This document shows, piece by piece, positions 9,264 to 22,938 of a stretch of DNA of 64,000 nucleotides. The position numbers and the translations under genes are program-made. Within the stretch, counting starts at the first letter, position 1. Each line of letters begins with the position of its first letter. This DNA comes from Clostridia bacterium. Its GTDB lineage: Bacteria > Bacillota > Clostridia > Christensenellales > UBA1242. The notes below the pieces were generated by a model. That model saw nothing but the letters and a program-made list of their open reading frames with translations, had not been told where the DNA came from and did no database searches. The stretch covers positions 14,875 to 78,874 of the forward strand of contig JAZSRL010000009.1 of the NCBI GenBank assembly GCA_045538455.1. Reading direction: 5' to 3'.

Positions 9264-9337
9264 AGGGGTATGGCCAAGCGGTAAGGCAAATGGCTCTGAC
9301 CCATTGATCGTAGGTTCGAATCCTGCTACCCCTGCCA
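9264..9337 (+). tRNA. tRNA-Gln (anticodon CUG)
   Basis: AGGGGTATGGCCAAGCGGTAAGGCAAATGGCTCTGACCCATT...GTAGGTTCGAATCCTGCTACCCCTGCCA. The anticodon loop is CTCTGAC. Confidence 0.9.
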
Positions 9338-9570: not shown

Positions 9571-11025
9571 TTATTTTATTCTTTGGTATTCGACAAGCCC
9601 TAACAAGTATAAAAAAGCTGGTGCGGGAATCTTATAAATACTTTTGTTCCCGTATTTGAACTCACCAAAATCGTTAGCCCTTTTTGTTATTATAATTCCT
9701 GGAAGCATATCATTGCCTTCTGTGACAATCGCATCACCTTCTGTAATTTTAGATTGTTCTCGATATTTTACTTCAATTAAAATTGATGGAACCTTAATAG
9801 ATTTAACAACAATATCAATTTCTTTTTCTTTCTTATCACCACGGTAATATCCTATTTGGGTGTTGTCATTATAATAAAATGATTTTATATGCTTATAAAC
9901 TGCAGTCTCAGCGATAACGCCCAATTCGTCTGGGTCATTTGTTATATCATCTTTTAGTAATACTGCATTTCGCATTGCAGCATCTGCTATATAAATTTTG
10001 TTTTGTCCTTTTAGAACTTGCTTTGGGCCAGTGCTAATTGAAGGACTAACATAAATCAAATTTGCACTTTCGAGATATTCAATATATTTATCAATTGTAT
10101 TTCTGCTAACCCCATCAAGTTCTTTTGAAATTGTAGCAATATTAATTATGTTGGAAGATGTATAGCAAAGATACAAGAATAATTTTTCAATATCAGTAAT
10201 ATTCCTAATGCCATAGATTGAAGGCAAATCTCTTTTTAAGGCTTTGTCAACAATGTCTTCCCTTAGAATTCGTTGGGCATAAATATCGTCATGGCTTAAA
10301 GCTAGTTCAGGGAAACCTCCAACTTGTAAATACCTTATAAAGTGCACCTGCAAACAAGAAAGTTTATTAAAAATATCAGTTTGTTCCTGTTTTGATTTTT
10401 GATACAATTGGGTAGGTTTTACAACCTGAGATAACGCGGGAACTGAAATATTTAATAATTGACAATACTCATAAAAGGATAATGTAGGTACATGGATAAT
10501 TGTCCATCTGCCTAATCCACTTTCGGAAACCTTATCTTTTAAAATTGGACTTGCTGACCCTGTTGCCATTATGTGCATATGGGGATTAGTATCATATAAG
10601 ATTTTTAACCATTTATTCCATTCTGAGGCATATTGAATTTCATCAAAAAAACAATATATTTCACTGTCTGATGAAATATTGCTACGATATATTTCAATTA
10701 CCTTATCGATTGAACATAATTTCAACAAAGGATGGTCAAAAGAAACAAATATTATGTTTTTAGGAGAAATACCATCATTAATCAATTTATCAATTGTCTG
10801 ATACATAACAGTTGTTTTGCCTGTTCTTCTTGCACCACATAAAATTACGGAACGTCTAATATCGGTCTTTAACATTGTTCTTATTGCTTCGTAATAAGCA
10901 AATCTTTTCATCTCCTTAATGAATTCTTTTTGTACCACACCTGTTTGCCACCATGGATTATAAGAAAACAGCAAGTTTAAAACATTTTCACTGGTTGCTA
11001 ATTCCAAATTACACTCCTTTAACAA
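9571..11025 (-). CDS. AAA+ ATPase (AAA_14/DUF4143-type)
   Basis: 484 aa with Walker A GARRTGKTT, Walker B-like YCFFDEIQY and the N-terminal NPWW motif common in this family. Confidence 0.75.
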   Translation of the reverse strand: MLKECNLELATSENVLNLLFSYNPWWQTGVVQKEFIKEMKRFAYYEAIRTMLKTDIRRSVILCGARRTGKTTVMYQTIDKLINDGISPKNIIFVSFDHPLLKLCSIDKVIEIYRSNISSDSEIYCFFDEIQYASEWNKWLKILYDTNPHMHIMATGSASPILKDKVSESGLGRWTIIHVPTLSFYEYCQLLNISVPALSQVVKPTQLYQKSKQEQTDIFNKLSCLQVHFIRYLQVGGFPELALSHDDIYAQRILREDIVDKALKRDLPSIYGIRNITDIEKLFLYLCYTSSNIINIATISKELDGVSRNTIDKYIEYLESANLIYVSPSISTGPKQVLKGQNKIYIADAAMRNAVLLKDDITNDPDELGVIAETAVYKHIKSFYYNDNTQIGYYRGDKKEKEIDIVVKSIKVPSILIEVKYREQSKITEGDAIVTEGNDMLPGIIITKRANDFGEFKYGNKSIYKIPAPAFLYLLGLVEYQRIK

Positions 11026-12235: not shown

Positions 12236-13054
12236 CTAGTAATAAAAAGTTCGTTCAACATTTTTTACTCTAACTCCATTGATGTATGATATAGAATAAA
12301 CTTGATGATAGTGGGTAAGTCCCATTTCTTCAGCAAGTTCTTTTCCAAAGTATTTATCAGTATTAACAATAACTTTAACATCATCAGTGATTGGCAAGTT
12401 TCTACTTGTTGAAATAAGTTTCATTCCATAATCATAGTGTGAATACATCACTCCATCTTGCATAAAGAATTCGTGTTTTTCAGATTTACAGATATAGTTC
12501 TTTATTCCTTCGTAGTTATAAATTTTTTGTACGTCTACACTGGTTCCAAGTGTCCAATGATTTTGCACCCATGGTCTCGTGAATTCTCTTGGAGTATTGT
12601 TACCTTTAAAGAAAAGTATTAAGTGAGCATGTTTATATAAATCTTCGCTTAATTCTAATCTTCTAATGTAGGCAAAATAATTATCGAAATTGTAAGAGAC
12701 TTTATCTAAAAATGATTTAACTTGTTTATCTAATTCATTAAAGGTTAAATCTTTATTATCAGTGGTTAATGTTACATAAAGCATTGGATAACTTGTATCA
12801 ACAAATGTTAGTGTGCGTTCCCAACCTCTCAGTTGTCTTTTTACATTGCGTTTTAATGAATATAGTTGGTCTTTTTTTCGACAATGATAGCCACCCATAC
12901 CATCGGGTAAGTATGAGGCGTACTTGAATTTTTTTCTTTCCGTCATAATTCTTGCACCCTCAATAATGTAATGCCGATATTCTTGTATCGCCTCTGGTAA
13001 AATATATAAATTAAAATAATTTGAATTTTCTAATACGTTTAAATTAGTTTGCAT
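12236..13054 (-). CDS. HUH-type rolling-circle replication initiator / relaxase-like protein
   Basis: 272 aa with the three RCR motifs in order: MLYVTLTTDN (motif I, xLTLT-like), KHAHLILFF (HUH) and NYICKSEKH (YxxK). Confidence 0.55.
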   Translation of the reverse strand: MQTNLNVLENSNYFNLYILPEAIQEYRHYIIEGARIMTERKKFKYASYLPDGMGGYHCRKKDQLYSLKRNVKRQLRGWERTLTFVDTSYPMLYVTLTTDNKDLTFNELDKQVKSFLDKVSYNFDNYFAYIRRLELSEDLYKHAHLILFFKGNNTPREFTRPWVQNHWTLGTSVDVQKIYNYEGIKNYICKSEKHEFFMQDGVMYSHYDYGMKLISTSRNLPITDDVKVIVNTDKYFGKELAEEMGLTHYHQVYSISYINGVRVKNVERTFYY

Positions 13055-13432
13055 AATTTACATCTCCTGGTTATCTTATAAAATCTAAATTTTTTGCATA
13101 TTAAAGTATGCTCATCGCTTACGATGATTTTTTATTGACAGCCTGAACAATAATCTTTTGTTATTGTCCCAATATTTTTAAAACCAAGTGTTACGGTTCA
13201 GTTAATAAAATTATTGATATTCCCATAATTTTCTCCTTTTGTTTTTTTCTCTATATCAATATACAGTTTGTCTTATGCTAACTTTGAGTTAATGGGGGTT
13301 TACCCCATGTTTTTGCATAAAAAAATGTTAAAAAACCATTAAAAATTAGTTTCCCTATTATATATTACAGTATTTGTTCAAAAAACTGATTTTGGCACCG
13401 GTCACAATGATTAAATCTTGATTTTTAGCAAT

Positions 13433-13474
13433 AAAAAAGAGCCTTAATCAAATTTCGATTTTAAGGCTCTTTTT
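13433..13474. terminator. bidirectional rho-independent terminator
   Basis: AAAAAAGAGCCTTAA-(13 nt)-TTAAGGCTCTTTTT: a 10-bp stem flanked by an A-run and a T-run. Confidence 0.7.
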
Positions 13475-13510
13475 ATAATTTATGTAATTTGTATCAAGTG
13501 AACTGATTCT

Positions 13511-13536
13511 GTTGGTCCTGGTCAATTTGGTGGACT
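13511..13536 (+). repeat. direct repeat, copy 1 (GTTGGTCCTGGTCAATTTGGTGGACT)
   Basis: 23 of 26 positions match copy 2 at 16377-16402. Both copies lie about 35-40 nt after a terminator hairpin and an ATAATTTA string. Confidence 0.75.
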
Positions 13537-13553
13537 CTAGTGCTAGTTTTTAA

Positions 13554-13853
13554 TCAATTTTCATAAAGATTCAAAATGGCATCTTTTTGTCTTGATGTTA
13601 GTTTAGAGAAATAGTCAATTAAAGTTTTATCTTTTTGATAAGCCAGTAAATCACGGTGAAAAAATTCTTCGGGGGTGCTGTTACAACATTCAATAATTTG
13701 CATCAACATATTAATCGGTGGATCAAATTGTAAACTTTCTATTTTGTTAATGTAGCAATCATTTTTGCCTAAACGCAAAGACAATTCCCGTGCAGATAAA
13801 TTGGCTCTATCTCTAATTTGTTTGATTCTTATCACAATTTCTTTTTTATCCAT
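13554..13853 (-). CDS. XRE-family helix-turn-helix regulator
   Basis: 99 aa. IKQIRDRANLSARELSLRLGKNDCYINKIES is a classic HTH_3 pattern. It is divergent from the methyltransferase gene. Confidence 0.7.
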   Translation of the reverse strand: MDKKEIVIRIKQIRDRANLSARELSLRLGKNDCYINKIESLQFDPPINMLMQIIECCNSTPEEFFHRDLLAYQKDKTLIDYFSKLTSRQKDAILNLYEN

Positions 13854-14078
13854 AGCTACCTCTGTTTTGTTTACTAATATTATAAATTCCGCTCTGTTTA
13901 TAGGTTGTGATAATTACTGCGTAATTTTACTTAATAATCATAAATCTATGGATTATTACTTTTGAATAGGAAATTTATTTGACCTTATAATCAATATTTT
14001 TTATATTTGTATTATAAATATTGACTTTTAAGGATAAACAATCTAAAAAGTTGATTTAATCATCACAAAGGATTTTGA

Positions 14079-15176
14079 ATGGAAAAACAACAAAAGGTTT
14101 TGAATAAAATTAAATACGACAGTGGGCAGAAAACACCATTGGGAACTGTGCCAAATGACGAATGTTATACATCGATGCAAGACATTGTTAATGAGCTTTC
14201 GTATTGGGCAGATAAATTTAAAAACAAAAATATTATTTGTCCTTGTGATTGGGATATTGTTGATGATGAAGACGGTATTTATTCTTTAAGAATCGATTTT
14301 GATAAAGACGAAATGCACGGACATACAAACACGGTTAAATCTGTAAGATGTTTATACATTAAAGATGTGGATAATACTGAATCGAAAGAAATTCCTAAGG
14401 ATAAAGTTGATGAATTTTTAAGCAAGCGCTTAAAATGTAATTTTGTTCGGACCTTTGTGGAACATGCTAAAGAATGGCAAATTAAAAGTATTACCGCTAG
14501 TGGATACAATCCCGCAACCGGGAAAGGAATTCGGTTCCAAGAAGTTGATTTTACACAATATGATATTTGTGTAACTAATCCACCATTTAGCGCATATAAA
14601 AATGGCTTATTTCTAAATACCCTGCTAAATAGCAAAATTGATTTTATTGTACTAGCTCCATTTTTAAATAGAACAAATCCATGTGTTGGATTGCCCTTAA
14701 TGCTAAAAACATGTTATTTAGGTTATGGAAGACATTTAAGTTTAAATTTTTACAATCCAACTGAAAACAATCAATTTAAAACTAAAACAGTTGCAGTCGA
14801 TTGGCTCACTTCGTTTTCTGATGCACAAGATGAAATAAACAAACAACAACTTCGTAACGGATTCAAATATGAGAATTACAAAAACGATTTTACTGCAATG
14901 AAGAATATGACTATGAAAGATGGAACTCACCCTATAAGGGCTGATAAATTTAGTGGAATACCTGATGATTACTTCGGTTGGATTTTCTGTTCGGTTGGCG
15001 TGTTAGATGTTTTGAGTAATGATGAATTTGAGTGGCACATTACCAATGCCAAAGGTTATTACAACAAAGTCAATCCAAGTGCTAATCCATTTGCTCATCG
15101 AGCATCAAACGAAATGGTTTCAAATCCAGGAGAAAAAAGTTTTCACGGTGTAGTAATAAGGAGAATAAAAAAATGA
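14079..15176 (+). CDS. N6-adenine DNA methyltransferase (EcoRI-methylase-like family)
   Basis: 365 aa with catalytic motif IV ICVTNPPFS and N-terminal NDECYTS...NIICPCDWD, which resembles that family (from memory). The stop overlaps the next start (ATGA). Confidence 0.65.
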   Translation: MEKQQKVLNKIKYDSGQKTPLGTVPNDECYTSMQDIVNELSYWADKFKNKNIICPCDWDIVDDEDGIYSLRIDFDKDEMHGHTNTVKSVRCLYIKDVDNTESKEIPKDKVDEFLSKRLKCNFVRTFVEHAKEWQIKSITASGYNPATGKGIRFQEVDFTQYDICVTNPPFSAYKNGLFLNTLLNSKIDFIVLAPFLNRTNPCVGLPLMLKTCYLGYGRHLSLNFYNPTENNQFKTKTVAVDWLTSFSDAQDEINKQQLRNGFKYENYKNDFTAMKNMTMKDGTHPIRADKFSGIPDDYFGWIFCSVGVLDVLSNDEFEWHITNAKGYYNKVNPSANPFAHRASNEMVSNPGEKSFHGVVIRRIKK

Positions 15177-16297
15177 AAAAAACAGTTAAAGAAATTTTTG
15201 AAATGATTAGTAGTGGAAAATTACATTATGACCAATCCACACAACGCAAATTTATTTATTACACAGAGAATCAAAACACAGAAGATGGTCAAATGACACG
15301 AGCCGGAAATGTGATACGCTCAATCTTACAATTTGACATTCAGTTACCTGCTCTTTATTTTTGGGACCTTGGTAATGATGAATACAATATTCATGATGGA
15401 AAACAAAGGGTTTTAAGTCTTTATTATTTTTGTAATCCGACTAGAGAAATTAATGTAGTAACCAGAATCAATGGACGAGAAACAACATTTATTGGATTAA
15501 CCCAAGAACAAAAAGATAAACTTCTGAATTACACTTTTGATATAGTGGTTAAACAAGGAAGTCAGGACCAAGAAGAAGTTTCATTTTACATGATAAATAC
15601 AAACTCATTAGCTTTAACACCATACGAAAGTTTACGAGGTATGTTCCATGGAACCTGGATTTACGAATTTGAACAGTTTATAGAAGAAAAAGCAAGGGTT
15701 ATTGATAATATCAAAAAAATCGGGCGTGGCGAACAAGCAATTCAGTTTTTGTATAATTGCTTTGACTTACTTGGAGATAGAATGGCGCCAAACAAGATTC
15801 GAACACATCTAAGAGATGTACGAAATACTTCTTTTGATGCCAATACTTACAAACTAAATGAAATCCTTGAAGTTTATTCTGAATTCATTAAAATTACATC
15901 AGTTGATAGCGAAAAAGCATTAATGGTAGCAAGTTTTATTGTCAACAAGGGTTGGGATAAAGATTCAATTCTTGATTATTACCGAAAAATCATGAGAAAT
16001 GCAAATGATGTTAAAAAATGGAAAATTGAAACCCATAAAACTGCAATTACCAAATTAATTCAAGATAACATTGAATGCGATGGTAAACGATTATTTAATG
16101 ACGAAGATAAAAGTTCTCTATATCGTCGCTCACAAAAATGTGCAGGTGCAAATTGCACGGTTACAAATTATAAAGAACTAGAAGTTGACCATATTACACC
16201 TTGGAGCAAAGGCGGTAGAACTATTTTAGATAATGCCCGATTGCTTTGCAAATCACACAATGCCAGCAAGGGCGACGACGATGGAATTAAAGGTTAA
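15173..16297 (+). CDS. DUF262 (ParB-like NTPase) - HNH nuclease fusion
   Basis: 374 aa. The N-terminal part has QRKFIY and HDGKQRV (a DGQQR-like DUF262 signature). The C-terminus EVDHITPWSKGGRTILDNARLLCKSHNASKG is an HNH motif. Confidence 0.75.
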   Translation: MKKTVKEIFEMISSGKLHYDQSTQRKFIYYTENQNTEDGQMTRAGNVIRSILQFDIQLPALYFWDLGNDEYNIHDGKQRVLSLYYFCNPTREINVVTRINGRETTFIGLTQEQKDKLLNYTFDIVVKQGSQDQEEVSFYMINTNSLALTPYESLRGMFHGTWIYEFEQFIEEKARVIDNIKKIGRGEQAIQFLYNCFDLLGDRMAPNKIRTHLRDVRNTSFDANTYKLNEILEVYSEFIKITSVDSEKALMVASFIVNKGWDKDSILDYYRKIMRNANDVKKWKIETHKTAITKLIQDNIECDGKRLFNDEDKSSLYRRSQKCAGANCTVTNYKELEVDHITPWSKGGRTILDNARLLCKSHNASKGDDDGIKG

Positions 16298-16313
16298 TAA
16301 TTAACTCAACAAT

Positions 16314-16349
16314 AAAAAAGAACCCCAGGTTTTAATTCTGGGGTTTTTT
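16314..16349 (+). terminator. rho-independent terminator
   Basis: AACCCCAG-(9 nt)-CTGGGGTT followed by TTTT. Confidence 0.75.
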
Positions 16350-16376
16350 GCATAATTTACCAATCCAAGCATATCC

Positions 16377-16402
16377 GTTGGTCCTGGTTGATTTGGTGGG
16401 CT
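16377..16402 (+). repeat. direct repeat, copy 2 (GTTGGTCCTGGTTGATTTGGTGGGCT)
   Basis: See copy 1. The two copies are 2866 bp apart. Confidence 0.75.
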
Positions 16403-16449: not shown

Positions 16450-16478
16450 TTGACTAAAACGGGATTCTCATGTATAAT
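16450..16478 (+). promoter_or_regulatory. sigma-70-type promoter (TTGACT-17 nt-TATAAT)
   Basis: Near-consensus -35 and -10 boxes with a 17-nt spacer, about 18 nt upstream of the riboswitch P1 helix. Confidence 0.6.
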
Positions 16479-16494
16479 GAAAATACAATTAAAT

Positions 16495-16646
16495 AGCTAT
16501 CAAGAGTGTTAGATGTTAAGGGACCAGCCCAATGCTAACCAGCAACCTGTCGGGAAAGACAAGGTGCTAAAACTGAGTGATAGGCGTAAACCATTTTACG
16601 AATCATGTTTTCCTTCGGCTCTATCACTCTTGGTAGGGTTTTTTAA
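16495..16646 (+). promoter_or_regulatory. SAM-I (S-box) riboswitch aptamer plus expression platform
   Basis: The aptamer (~16495-16585) has the conserved strings in order: CTATCAAGAG ... GGGACCAGCCCAATG ... CCAGCAACC ... AAGGTGCTAA ... GAGTGATAG. Downstream, CTATCACTCTTGGTAG can pair with either P1 strand and is followed by GGTTTTTT. Confidence 0.7.
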
Positions 16647-16663
16647 TTGTTAAGGAGGAAAAT

Positions 16664-17188
16664 ATGAAAGACACTTATGAAAAATTTTTACAACTGGAAA
16701 AGGAAGACAATCTGACCGAACAAAGAATCTTGGAACATTTGAACTGCTCCAAAGTTAAGGCACGGATGTTGTATCAACAACTCATTCGCAAAAAAATTAT
16801 TGTCAAAGGCAAAGTGGTTAACCCAGAAGAATTTCGCGGATGGGGATTAGCATTTTTAGTTTATGATGAGTACGCCGAAATTGAAGTCGGGCTGGAATCC
16901 ATCATTGACAATGTTTTAATCGATGACGAAAAATTTATTCGTTTAATTCACAACAAAGTTGACCCTGCTTTCCGTAAGGAACTTTCGTCTGAAATGCGTA
17001 AAAACACGCTTAAAATTTTATTAGGACTAGGCGAAGACCAAAAATACTTAATTTATCAACTAGCCGTTCAAGCGCTGGCAGAATCGCTACGAACCAGTAA
17101 GGATTTAATCGCACCGCAAGATACCCCCGAAGAATTGCCTGATGCAGATGGAGTTGTAATTACGTTGGATATGCCCAAAGGGAAATAA
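16664..17188 (+). CDS. hypothetical protein downstream of the SAM riboswitch
   Basis: 174 aa with a strong RBS (AAGGAGG). The N-terminal ~50 aa look winged-helix-like. No catalytic motif recognised. Confidence 0.6.
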   Translation: MKDTYEKFLQLEKEDNLTEQRILEHLNCSKVKARMLYQQLIRKKIIVKGKVVNPEEFRGWGLAFLVYDEYAEIEVGLESIIDNVLIDDEKFIRLIHNKVDPAFRKELSSEMRKNTLKILLGLGEDQKYLIYQLAVQALAESLRTSKDLIAPQDTPEELPDADGVVITLDMPKGK

Positions 17189-19222: not shown

Positions 19223-19647
19223 ATGATACAAGAAATAATTACAGATGAAGAAATCTTAGGTCAACGTTCAGATGAAATTGATAATGGAGAAACTTATGCA
19301 GAAAAATAACTTACAACAATTAGTTGTTGTCAAAAGTTGAGTTCGTAAAAATAGTCAAATTGAGCCCAACGACAACAAATGAACAGCAATTAAAGAAAAC
19401 AAAGTAGCAAAAGAAATCATTCAACTGCTGATAGATGAATTAGATAAAAATTATAATGATGAGGAGAAAAATACAAATGACAACAAATAGTAAAACAAAT
19501 TATGCAGTAGCAGACTGCAATGAAAATAATAAGCAAATTTATAAATCCCCTGAAGACGAATTGATGGAAAATATTATAAACATTTTTAATTCCTGACTTG
19601 AAAAACTTGCCGAACATTATGATATAAAGGAGAAAACCAATGAATAA
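19223..19647 (+). pseudogene. short ORFs interrupted only by frame change and TGA codons (decayed genes, or genes that originated under a TGA=Trp code)
   Basis: 19223-19309 encodes 28 aa behind the conserved junction. The ORF from the ATG at 19272 has in-frame TGAs at 19338 and 19380 and ends with TAG at 19488. The ORF from the ATG at 19477 has an in-frame TGA at 19594 and ends with TAA at 19645-19647, overlapping the recombinase ATG at 19640. Confidence 0.4.
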
Positions 19648-21358
19648 CAACGAAACAATTACAAGAGCTGTTGCCTATTGCAGGTTTAGTAGCCACAATC
19701 AAAGAGAAGAAAGTATTGATGCTCAACTAAGAGCAATTCACGAATATGCACGACAAAACAATATGGTCATCATTAAAGCATATTGCGACAGTGCTATCAG
19801 CGGAACAGGTAGTGCTGACCGTAAACAATTCCAACAAATGATTTCTGATGCTGGCAAAAGAGAATTTACTAAGGTCATTGTTCATAAATTGGACCGCTTT
19901 GCCAGAAATCGTAATGATTCTTTTGGTTATAAATTAGAACTCAAAAAACATGGTGTTGATGTAGTTTCCGTTTTGGAACACATTGATGACAGTCCTGAAG
20001 GCTTTTTAATGGAAGGTCTTTTGGATATGTTAGCCGATTTCTATTCAAGAAACTTGGGTCGTGAAGTTATCAAAGGCATGAAAGAAAATGCCTACAAATC
20101 TAAATTCAATGGCAGTCGCCCACCTTTGGGTTACTGCCTTGTCCCACGAAAAGATGAATATGGCAATTTGGTATTAAGCCAAAGAACGGGTACCGAACTG
20201 CACGATTTAGCCATTGATAAGGAAAAGGCAATTATCATTAAAAAGATTTTTGATATGGTACTTGAACGCAAAACTTATCCTGAAATTGTTGCCTATTTGA
20301 AAGAAAACGATTATAAGACAAACTCTAATAAGGATTTTACCTACGAAGATTTGTTGAGAATTTTACGCAACGAAAGGTATACGGGTACTTACATCTTTAA
20401 TCGTCGTAAAAAGATTATTGGTAAAAATGGTCGCTATACTTATGACCGCACCAATGCCGAAGAAACTATTAAAAACGAAAATGCGTTTCCTGCCATTGTT
20501 TCCCGCGAACAATTTAATGCTGTGCAAAAACTTTTGGATTCGCGTGTTAGGAAAACACCAGGATTAAGAATTGTTGATTATTTACTTGCTGGTAAAATTA
20601 TTTGTGGTGAATGCGGGCATCCTTTTAGCGGAGAAAGAAAACGCAAGAACTTTGCCGATGGTACAACTTATTGGATTTACTATCGCTGCAAAAGCAATCA
20701 CAACAAAACAGATAAACTAACAACCAAAGCCAATTGTCATAATAGCAGTATCCGCAAAGATGAAATTGAAGCCTTTGTGTTACAACAAATTACTGACTTA
20801 ATTTTCAGCGAAAAGAACTTTGACAAGATTTTTGAATTTTATCAAAACTATAAAACAGAACTTTTGTCTAACGAACATGCTACTTCGGCGATTGAAAAAG
20901 AAATCAGCAACATTGAAAAGAAAATTCAAAACCTTTACAATGCCATTGCTGACATGGGTTACACCGAACAAATCAAATTGCAAATTTCTGGTTACGAAAA
21001 GAAGAAATTAGACTTAACGGAAAAACTTGCCGAAGCCAAATCTTTTCAACTACCAACGATTAACAAAGACAAATTGAAAGCATCTTACGATAAATTCAAA
21101 TACGAATTTCAAAACAACATATTGCCAAACAACAAAGATTTGGTTGATATTTTCTTAAACAAAGTTGTGGTTTATAAAGACCATGTCGAAGTTTATCTCA
21201 ATGTGTTGCCTGCACTGAAATGTGAAGACTATGGCTTAGAGATTGACTTAAACCTATTAAAAAGCGAAGAGGACGGAGAAAATCCATCCTCTTTGTTGTT
21301 TTTATCCCCAGAACGTGTATCTGCAGGCTCTAACTCTGCCAACACAAACTTAATTTGA
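19640..21358 (+). CDS. large serine recombinase (integrase)
   Basis: 572 aa with an N-terminal resolvase domain (AVAYCRFSSHNQREESIDAQ, VHKLDRFARN), a recombinase domain, a zinc ribbon (CGECGHPF...YYRC) and a C-terminal coiled coil. Confidence 0.9.
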   Translation: MNNNETITRAVAYCRFSSHNQREESIDAQLRAIHEYARQNNMVIIKAYCDSAISGTGSADRKQFQQMISDAGKREFTKVIVHKLDRFARNRNDSFGYKLELKKHGVDVVSVLEHIDDSPEGFLMEGLLDMLADFYSRNLGREVIKGMKENAYKSKFNGSRPPLGYCLVPRKDEYGNLVLSQRTGTELHDLAIDKEKAIIIKKIFDMVLERKTYPEIVAYLKENDYKTNSNKDFTYEDLLRILRNERYTGTYIFNRRKKIIGKNGRYTYDRTNAEETIKNENAFPAIVSREQFNAVQKLLDSRVRKTPGLRIVDYLLAGKIICGECGHPFSGERKRKNFADGTTYWIYYRCKSNHNKTDKLTTKANCHNSSIRKDEIEAFVLQQITDLIFSEKNFDKIFEFYQNYKTELLSNEHATSAIEKEISNIEKKIQNLYNAIADMGYTEQIKLQISGYEKKKLDLTEKLAEAKSFQLPTINKDKLKASYDKFKYEFQNNILPNNKDLVDIFLNKVVVYKDHVEVYLNVLPALKCEDYGLEIDLNLLKSEEDGENPSSLLFLSPERVSAGSNSANTNLI

Positions 21359-22917: not shown

Positions 22918-22938
22918 TAGGTTAGCCGACCCCTGCCA
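22918..22938 (+). pseudogene. decayed tRNA-Gln 3'-end remnant (candidate right attachment-site scar)
   Basis: TAGGTTAGCCGACCCCTGCCA compared with the tRNA 3' part TAGGTTCGAATCCTGCTACCCCTGCCA. Confidence 0.45.

Follow-up and report, generated by a model that had tools for sequence, protein, structure and literature searches.

A restriction-modification pair as probable exchangeable cargo of an XRE-headed, repeat-flanked slot in a small integrated element of gut Clostridia

The window analysed here, a stretch of 64,000 nucleotides (nt) of contig JAZSRL010000009.1 (positions 14,875 to 78,874, GenBank assembly GCA_045538455.1, Clostridia bacterium), carries an AT-rich integrated element of ~13.6 kb that adjoins a tRNA-Gln gene in a 0.9-Mb uncultured gut Clostridia genome. 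Within this element, the genes of an XRE-family regulator, an N6-adenine DNA methyltransferase (MTase) and a nuclease lie between two direct repeats. The initial annotation took the three genes for a portable defence cassette, dropped into the element or exchangeable by recombination between the repeats, and regarded the two enzymes as an unorthodox restriction-modification (R-M) pairing. The locus thus raises the question of which of its parts are exchanged, and of what the repeats and the two enzymes do. We consider it probable that the MTase and the nuclease form an R-M module that is the swappable cargo of an XRE-headed slot in a small integrated element, and that the repeats belong to the backbone of this element.

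The MTase gene (14079..15176, plus strand) encodes a protein of 365 amino acids (aa) that belongs to the EcoRI_methylase family of Pfam (58 bits, model positions 10-344 of 345), contains the NPPF motif within ICVTNPPFSAY and matches the PADLOC profile MTase_II (9.8e-14). The nuclease gene (15173..16297, plus strand) codes for 374 aa, arranged as an N-terminal ParB/Srx-like DUF262 domain with HDGKQR at residues 74-79, a helical middle part and a C-terminal HNH domain (PF01844, 34.5 bits). The HNH domain has the zinc-finger cysteines C323, C328 and C359 as well as D339-H340, N354 and H362-N363, and PADLOC assigns the protein to REase_II (5.1e-16) and NsnA (1.5e-7). The TGA of the MTase gene (15174-15176) and the ATG of the nuclease gene (15173-15175) overlap as ATGA, and a 225-nt spacer separates the MTase gene from the divergent XRE gene, exactly as first annotated. 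Among the aligned homologues of the nuclease, the catalytic motifs and HDGKQR are invariant; 26 of 26 contain the PF01844 HNH domain, 24 of 26 match DUF262 (PF03235, GmrSD_N) and none of the 26 contains DUF1524. In the AlphaFold model of the nuclease (pLDDT 90.3), the N-terminal part is close to the ParB/Noc CTPase fold and the C-terminus resembles the HNH domains of Gme and Cas9. A PDB sequence search with both enzymes gave no significant match. A Menshen (NsnABC) system was rejected, as the weak NsnA match lies in the DUF262 region and PADLOC found neither NsnB nor NsnC among six open reading frames (ORFs) of the island.

The two genes are found together well beyond this element. Databases contain 305 relatives of the nuclease. 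In all of five independent metagenomic contexts, with nucleases 50-79% identical, the nuclease gene is adjoined by an EcoRI_methylase-family gene, in either gene order. The settings include an element with two tyrosine integrases and MobL, a chromosomal position between FTHFS and TsaE, a position between ABC transporter genes and a phage-like contig with reversed gene order; on phage-like contigs, a 78-aa HTH_17 gene directly follows the MTase gene. Nine plasmid records of cultured bacteria with full-length relatives of the nuclease (22-27% identity) were also compared, and in seven of them the MTase gene is directly upstream, the products being annotated as "adenine-specific methyltransferase EcoRI family protein" and "DUF262 domain-containing protein". 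These seven plasmids come from Leuconostoc, Dietzia, Pediococcus, Macrococcoides, Mammaliicoccus, Variovorax and Aeromonas, and the Dietzia pair adjoins Shedu and Abi genes. On the Enterococcus dispar plasmid pK205-4b-C (L051), the MTase-nuclease operon is split by optrA, a gene for oxazolidinone/phenicol resistance, and in the Chryseobacterium record 1.1 kb upstream of the nuclease gene is unannotated and the gene table is incomplete. The XRE gene and the repeats with their cores are present in none of these 14 other contexts (5 metagenomic, 9 plasmid), and among 399 genomes of the class, the nuclease as query found only that of the window. Judged by gene neighbourhood, the MTase and the nuclease are thus a strongly co-inherited, conserved operon of at least three phyla that travels independently of the XRE gene and the repeats. 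The pairing that had seemed odd is therefore a recurrent one, which PADLOC scores as Type II R-M.

What surrounds the pair in the window behaves differently. The XRE gene (13554..13853, minus strand; 99 aa, Pfam HTH_19/HTH_3) and the divergent promoter region, that is the 225-nt spacer between the XRE and MTase genes (13854..14078), have homologues in elements with other cargo, and the XRE protein is kept at 87-100% identity beside five different cargo sets. A search with the core sequence of the repeats led to two contigs of metagenome-assembled genomes (MAGs), and further relatives were found by protein-identity look-ups. The elements G002 and L012 have the same layout as the window. G001 and L030 keep the left core, the XRE gene (95-99%), the intergenic region and the right repeat unit, together with promoter, riboswitch and downstream genes, and their cargo is of Type III, with Mod (552-565 aa) and Res (718 aa) where the window has its MTase and nuclease; Type III cargo is also found in L040, with a 73% identical XRE. 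Where the XRE is 87-89% identical, the cargo consists of a 535-557-aa membrane protein and a BspA-type LRR_5 protein (L037, L044) or of two membrane proteins of 389 and 125 aa (L036), with no PADLOC match for the membrane and LRR proteins of these three elements. Different cargo thus lies between the same repeats in related elements, as the cassette proposal had anticipated: five cargo sets stand behind one XRE gene and promoter region, and before a common right unit wherever that end is seen.

The limits of homology indicate how much is exchanged. On the left, blastn similarity ends at ~13980 for G001 and at 14033-14037 for L037 and L044, ~40 nt before the MTase ATG, and a weaker gapped similarity extends beyond this limit up to the start codon. 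On the right, homology resumes ~10-15 nt past the nuclease stop codon, at the start of the terminator hairpin. With these limits at both ends, the exchanged piece is essentially the cargo ORFs, and the XRE gene and the promoter region stay in place. On comparative grounds, the latter two are therefore element backbone and do not belong to the gene pair, so that the three genes do not hold together as one portable unit. Imperfect inverted repeats in the spacer (13895-13945; TGATAATTAC ... TTAATAATCA), partly conserved in G001 and L030, are a candidate XRE operator.

The two arrangements of hairpin, ATAATTTA and 26-nt core described initially are present, and the repeat proved to be longer than its core: a unit of ~100 nt in two copies, each made up of a two-way terminator, ATAATTTA, a spacer and the core. 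The left unit begins with a hairpin and ATAATTTA (13429..13482), the perfect 14-nt arms at 13434-13447 and 13461-13474 folding at -22.8 kcal/mol (z -3.6) and ATAATTTA occupying 13475-13482. It continues with a spacer (13483..13510), in which GTATCAAGTGAACTGATTC is conserved in left units of both element lineages, and ends with the core GTTGGTCCTGGTCAATTTGGTGGACT (13511..13536, plus strand), 17 nt past the XRE stop codon. The right unit comprises a hairpin and ATAATTTA (16310..16359, with ATAATTTA at 16352-16359), which are homologous in every related element regardless of the upstream content, and the core GTTGGTCCTGGTTGATTTGGTGGGCT (16377..16402, plus strand), after which ~48 nt remain to the -35 box of the promoter that follows. 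Both hairpins are preceded by an A-run and followed by a T-run, and are therefore predicted to terminate transcription in either direction. The left and right units (13429-13536 and 16310-16402) align colinearly with a score of 34.5 (z 9.6), where none of 1839 other windows of the island exceeds 14, and still score 14.5 without the core, against a shuffle maximum of 11.5.

Both units are seen in seven elements (the window, G001, G002, L012, L030, L036 and L044), and in all seven they bracket the XRE gene and the cargo. Two of these elements, L044 and L036, have an inverted module, window positions 13548-14037 aligning to L044 5236-4746 on the opposite strand, with the orientation of Rep, left unit, right unit and riboswitch unchanged. 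Each unit's two-way terminator invariably closes off one of the two arms of the divergent module. Since the core follows its terminator on the right at both ends, the left core falls within the module and the right core beyond it; the core is thus directional and does not form a symmetric boundary. The two cores of the window are identical at 22 of 26 positions, and the degenerate core pattern (up to 3 mismatches) has two matches, against 0.00 expected from 100 shuffles. A common intergenic motif, which was the initial annotation's own alternative, was ruled out, as the core occurs twice in the 898,904 bp of the genome and real copies were found in 2 of 401 genomes of the family.

Taken together, these data suggest an accessory-gene platform in which a repressor-type XRE gene and its divergent promoter region, flanked on each side by a ~100-nt unit, would drive in the window's copy a two-gene R-M module. 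The EcoRI-family N6-adenine MTase would mark the resident DNA, and the translationally coupled nuclease would cleave unmarked incoming DNA with its HNH cutting domain, presumably blocked by the methylation of its partner rather than dependent on methylation. The hairpins would most simply serve as insulators, keeping the module apart from Rep on its left and, on its right, from the operon headed by the S-adenosylmethionine (SAM) riboswitch. The core, in which CTGGT-type repeats are phased at ~10 bp, would be a putative protein-binding site that marks the module joints, the likeness of its left and right copies being upheld by selection or gene conversion. We are fairly confident both that the MTase and the nuclease form an R-M unit and that this unit is one cargo among several that replace each other in a slot headed by XRE and insulated by terminators.

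Several observations weigh against this interpretation. The related elements are few (~10 contigs) and consist mostly of short metagenomic contigs. The left and right cores of L012 and L030 are just 67-70% identical, and between lineages the whole core (~81%) is conserved no better than its flanks (80-84%), its 5' 15 nt alone being invariant. In a third XRE lineage (L039-L043), the platform lies beside a tRNA and has no core, so that the core is dispensable for the platform. As for the enzymes, DUF262 is undetected by Pfam in the window's own nuclease at E<=0.01, this domain is best known from modification-dependent enzymes, and the direction of methylation sensitivity proposed above is deduced solely from the obligatory pairing.

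A first alternative, which we regard as rather unlikely, is that XRE, MTase and nuclease form one portable cassette moved by site-specific recombination between the directly repeated cores, with the XRE as its C protein. The bracketing of XRE and cargo in seven elements, in either module orientation, would agree with such a cassette, as would the core being the best-kept part of the unit and the element-specific base that both cores have in common in L036 and in L044. Two homology breakpoints also coincide with core edges. L034 matches L031 up to the right edge of the core and then continues with a different gene of 178 aa, and L030, which joins the Rep-upstream region straight to the core without left terminator and spacer, departs from other left units at the left edge. 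The gene that follows the breakpoint in L034 has a weak HEPN match (E 0.003) and is found on the minus strand directly after the right core in three elements (L034 261-797, L036 3048-3581, L044 5412-5948); a further ORF of L036, which precedes its left unit on the left, is weakly HEPN_AbiU2-like. Finally, L031 has a single unit and neither XRE nor cargo in the 624 nt upstream, but this unit is of the right type and its left flank is unresolved within that distance, and L031 was not accepted as a clean empty site.

Most of the comparative data are at odds with a cassette of this kind. One XRE gene and promoter region are retained with five cargo sets, which places the exchange between the repeats, roughly where the cargo ORFs begin and end, and the MTase-nuclease pair has neither XRE nor cores in its 14 other contexts. 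No recombinase lies within the cassette and none is tied to the repeats, the integrases of the elements being interchangeably large serine recombinases or phage-type tyrosine integrases. In lineage A, the left and right cores have fixed differences (CAATTT vs TGATTT), by which recent exchange between them is excluded, and a directional site fails to explain the inverted module. Neither an excised circle nor a clean empty site was found among the assembled contigs. Of the proposed exchange by recombination between the repeats, the difference in cargo between them therefore stands, whereas the breaks fall near the cargo ORFs. An integron cassette was likewise rejected, since the core has no fold beyond that of shuffled sequences, no IntI is present and the cargo boundary is off the core. 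As in R-M systems regulated by C proteins, a ~100-aa HTH_3 protein is encoded beside the R-M operon; unlike in these systems, the gene is divergent and conserved with unrelated cargo, and no XRE-type gene accompanies the 14 other pairs. A dedicated C protein was thus excluded, as the XRE also accompanies Type III and non-R-M cargo and is absent from the other contexts of the pair.

Another account, to which we give similarly little credence, is that the repeat has no function and was left behind by an old duplication or module joining, its conservation being only apparent and due to the close kinship of the elements. The comparison between lineages and the coreless platforms mentioned above would fit such a relic, and so would the lack of RNA structure: the fold z of the core ranges from -0.05 to +1.2 on both strands and no Rfam family matches there, by which a structured RNA was excluded. 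A coding sequence and a tRNA or att relic were discarded too, there being no ORF across the core and no likeness to the 3' end of tRNA-Gln. However, in five of seven elements the left and right cores are 81-96% identical, compared with ~60-68% for the 85 nt upstream, so that within elements they are far more alike than the rest of the unit. The 5' 12-15 nt of the core, GTTGGTCCTGGT(CAA), are nearly invariant across ~20 copies, and three independent homology breakpoints, those in L034 and L030 among them, fall at its edges; neither is expected of a relic.

The role that we favour for the core is that of a protein-binding site and module-joint marker, ahead of a recombination site, a relic or a rolling-circle origin. 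In lineage B, the extended core CCTGGTCAATCTGGTGGCGCCTGGTGC contains three CTGGT repeats 9-10 nt apart, a phasing that looks like a putative array of binding sites on one helix face. The same repeats, in the form (C/T)TGGT, could be claimed for a rolling-circle signal, in which case the left unit would be the double-strand origin of the HUH Rep, the core a Rep-binding locus and the right unit a paralogous partial origin. The basis of this proposal is a weak lead, ACTTGATAC on the reverse complement of the GTATCAAGTGAACTGATTC stretch, which resembles the CTTG/ATA rolling-circle nick motif and would place a nick-like ACTTG/ATAC in the left spacer. Rep, of the family REP_ORF2-G2P, lies on the left and on the same strand as the motif, the spacer GTATCAAGT(G/C)AACTGATTC is kept in left units of both lineages, and L030, which has no Rep on the left, also lacks this spacer. 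Nevertheless, CTTGATA is not enriched in the island (5 copies vs ~3 expected), the motif is absent from the right units, the Rep gene of G001 is at the far end of the element, and the 4.7-kb contig of L031 has a core with no Rep seen. We therefore hold an origin to be improbable, and more so than either the cassette or the relic.

The enzymes were also compared with known systems. The pair resembles Type II R-M systems made up of an HNH (beta-beta-alpha-Me) endonuclease and a gamma-class M.EcoRI-family MTase, as the two genes are separate, adjacent, co-inherited and translationally coupled, an NPPF motif and an HNH site with zinc finger are present, and both products match known PADLOC profiles (MTase_II and REase_II). 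Like such systems, it is borne on plasmids, islands and phages. Unlike classical Type IIP enzymes, which have no dependence on nucleoside triphosphates (NTPs), the nuclease has a large ParB/Srx-like N-domain with an invariant DGKQR, which suggests NTP dependence or switching; the domain is probably an NTP switch, and from its modelled likeness to ParB, NTPs may be involved in nuclease activity. On its sequence features, the pair can be classed as a Type II-like R-M system of an ordinary but little-studied family, with the DUF262 N-domain as its distinguishing feature. No published characterisation of an M.EcoRI-family MTase paired with a DUF262/HNH nuclease was found in the searchable literature.

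With GmrSD, BrxU and SspE, the nuclease shares an N-terminal ParB-like DUF262 domain joined to a His-Me finger nuclease in one polypeptide, the DGQQR-type motif of this domain (seen in the homologues) and an occurrence in defence islands. It differs from them in that its C-terminus is a PF01844 HNH domain instead of DUF1524, and in that it does not stand alone but has an adenine MTase as neighbour. Fused GmrSD enzymes are also longer, at ~600 aa or more compared with ~374 aa. Least credible of all is that the nuclease belongs with the GmrSD/BrxU-like Type IV enzymes and depends on modified DNA, beside a non-protective MTase (an orphan, for example, or one self-marking for another purpose): the GmrSD_N matches, the ParB-like fold and a literature that places DUF262 nucleases among modification-dependent enzymes (PMC4619093, PMC12707154) would allow it, but the C-terminal domain is a canonical zinc-finger HNH, the PADLOC match is to a Type II endonuclease profile, the MTase gene adjoins that of the nuclease in 5/5 metagenomic and 7/9 plasmid contexts (2 kb apart in one context), and cutting DNA that carries the N6-methyladenine made by the neighbour would be lethal. 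An obligatory MTase neighbour, often overlapping and usually first, fits protection by methylation and misfits a modification-dependent enzyme, and modification dependence thus seems unlikely from gene order.

With the R-M module read as cargo, the slot itself can be compared with the variable defence hotspots of P2-like phages and P4-like satellites (Rousset et al. 2022, PMC9122126). As in those hotspots, a fixed site in a family of small integrative elements has conserved flanks, here the XRE gene with its promoter region on one side and the terminator unit on the other, between which unrelated cargo including R-M systems is exchanged. In contrast to them, the slot is bracketed by a ~100-nt direct-repeat unit, the platform occurs in both orientations and some of the cargo (membrane and LRR proteins) is not recognisably defensive. 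The host is moreover a SAM-riboswitch-controlled element of small-genome Clostridia and not a known phage or satellite. On present evidence, the slot is a variation on the known hotspots of mobile elements.

The host element starts after tRNA-Gln(CUG) (9264-9337) as an AT-rich block (GC content 0.25-0.36 vs ~0.40 outside), and a relic of the tRNA 3' end, CCCCTGCCA, is found at ~22930-22938. The interval from the tRNA to Rep is a second variable region. In the window it contains the gene of an AAA_14/DUF4143 ATPase (9571-11025, minus strand), which matches the PADLOC candidate defence family PDC-S01 (1.2e-64), and a membrane protein gene between the ATPase gene and Rep; L012 has there RelA_SpoT and other genes. 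Rep (12236-13054, minus strand) was assigned by Pfam. The ~260-nt non-coding stretch between Rep and the left unit (13085-13345) contains two terminator-like hairpins (13112-13127 and 13292-13308) and a minus-strand ribosome-binding site with ATG at 13226. It is ~85-90% conserved in L030, where it lies only ~100 nt from a tRNA 3' end with no Rep in between.

To the right of the slot, a near-consensus promoter (TTGACT-17-TATAAT, 16450-16478, plus strand) and a SAM-I/IV riboswitch (16492-16616, plus strand; Rfam, 50.3 bits) head the core operon of the element, followed by a row of small genes with no family match and by a large serine recombinase gene (19640-21358). The riboswitch is kept in L012, L030 and L031, with a SAM-I match in L036 and a near-identical sequence visible in L034, and in L031 its operon runs continuously and without gaps into the serine recombinase gene. 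SAM is consumed by both R-M cargo types, and the operon next to them (16450-17188 in the window) is headed by a SAM riboswitch. The integration module is swapped among close relatives (window 19640-21358 vs L008 5356-7602): the window and L031 have the large serine recombinase, and G001, from the genus of the window, has a tyrosine integrase and then the Rep gene behind otherwise 98%-identical small genes. A 9-kb contig (L010; G002 contig C74) binned in a 2-Mb Candidatus Fimenecus MAG carries an element 97.4% identical to that of the window, with flanks ~80% identical, which suggests that the contig was mis-binned and comes from a relative of the window's organism, or else that a very recent transfer took place. 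Searches for further copies of the element returned nothing from IMG/VR or from a phage DNA collection, and none from JGI metagenomes, where the seven pattern matches were unrelated Gly-rich coding repeats; a 174-aa marker protein of the element found its own genome only among 401 genomes of the order.

A bolder interpretation, which we put forward as speculation and think unlikely to be correct, is that the units are the working sites of an undescribed exchange mechanism by which the XRE platform and its cargo are inserted, deleted or flipped in SAM-riboswitch-governed mini integrative elements, and, separately, that the nuclease represents an uncharacterised class of restriction enzymes gated by a ParB-like nucleotide switch and paired with EcoRI-family methylases in several phyla. 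The bracketing repeat and the inverted platform could be a pointer to a recombination or regulatory device. The operon of M.EcoRI-family MTase and DUF262/HNH nuclease is common on plasmids, islands and phages, including plasmids with optrA, cfr and mef(F), and the pair offers an accessible case for characterising a restriction enzyme founded on a ParB-like nucleotide-binding domain. For the ~0.9-Mb gut Clostridia, the host element points to a trade in accessory and defence genes through a slot that is fixed, insulated and under the control of a regulator, and in which the swaps occur at about the ORF boundaries.

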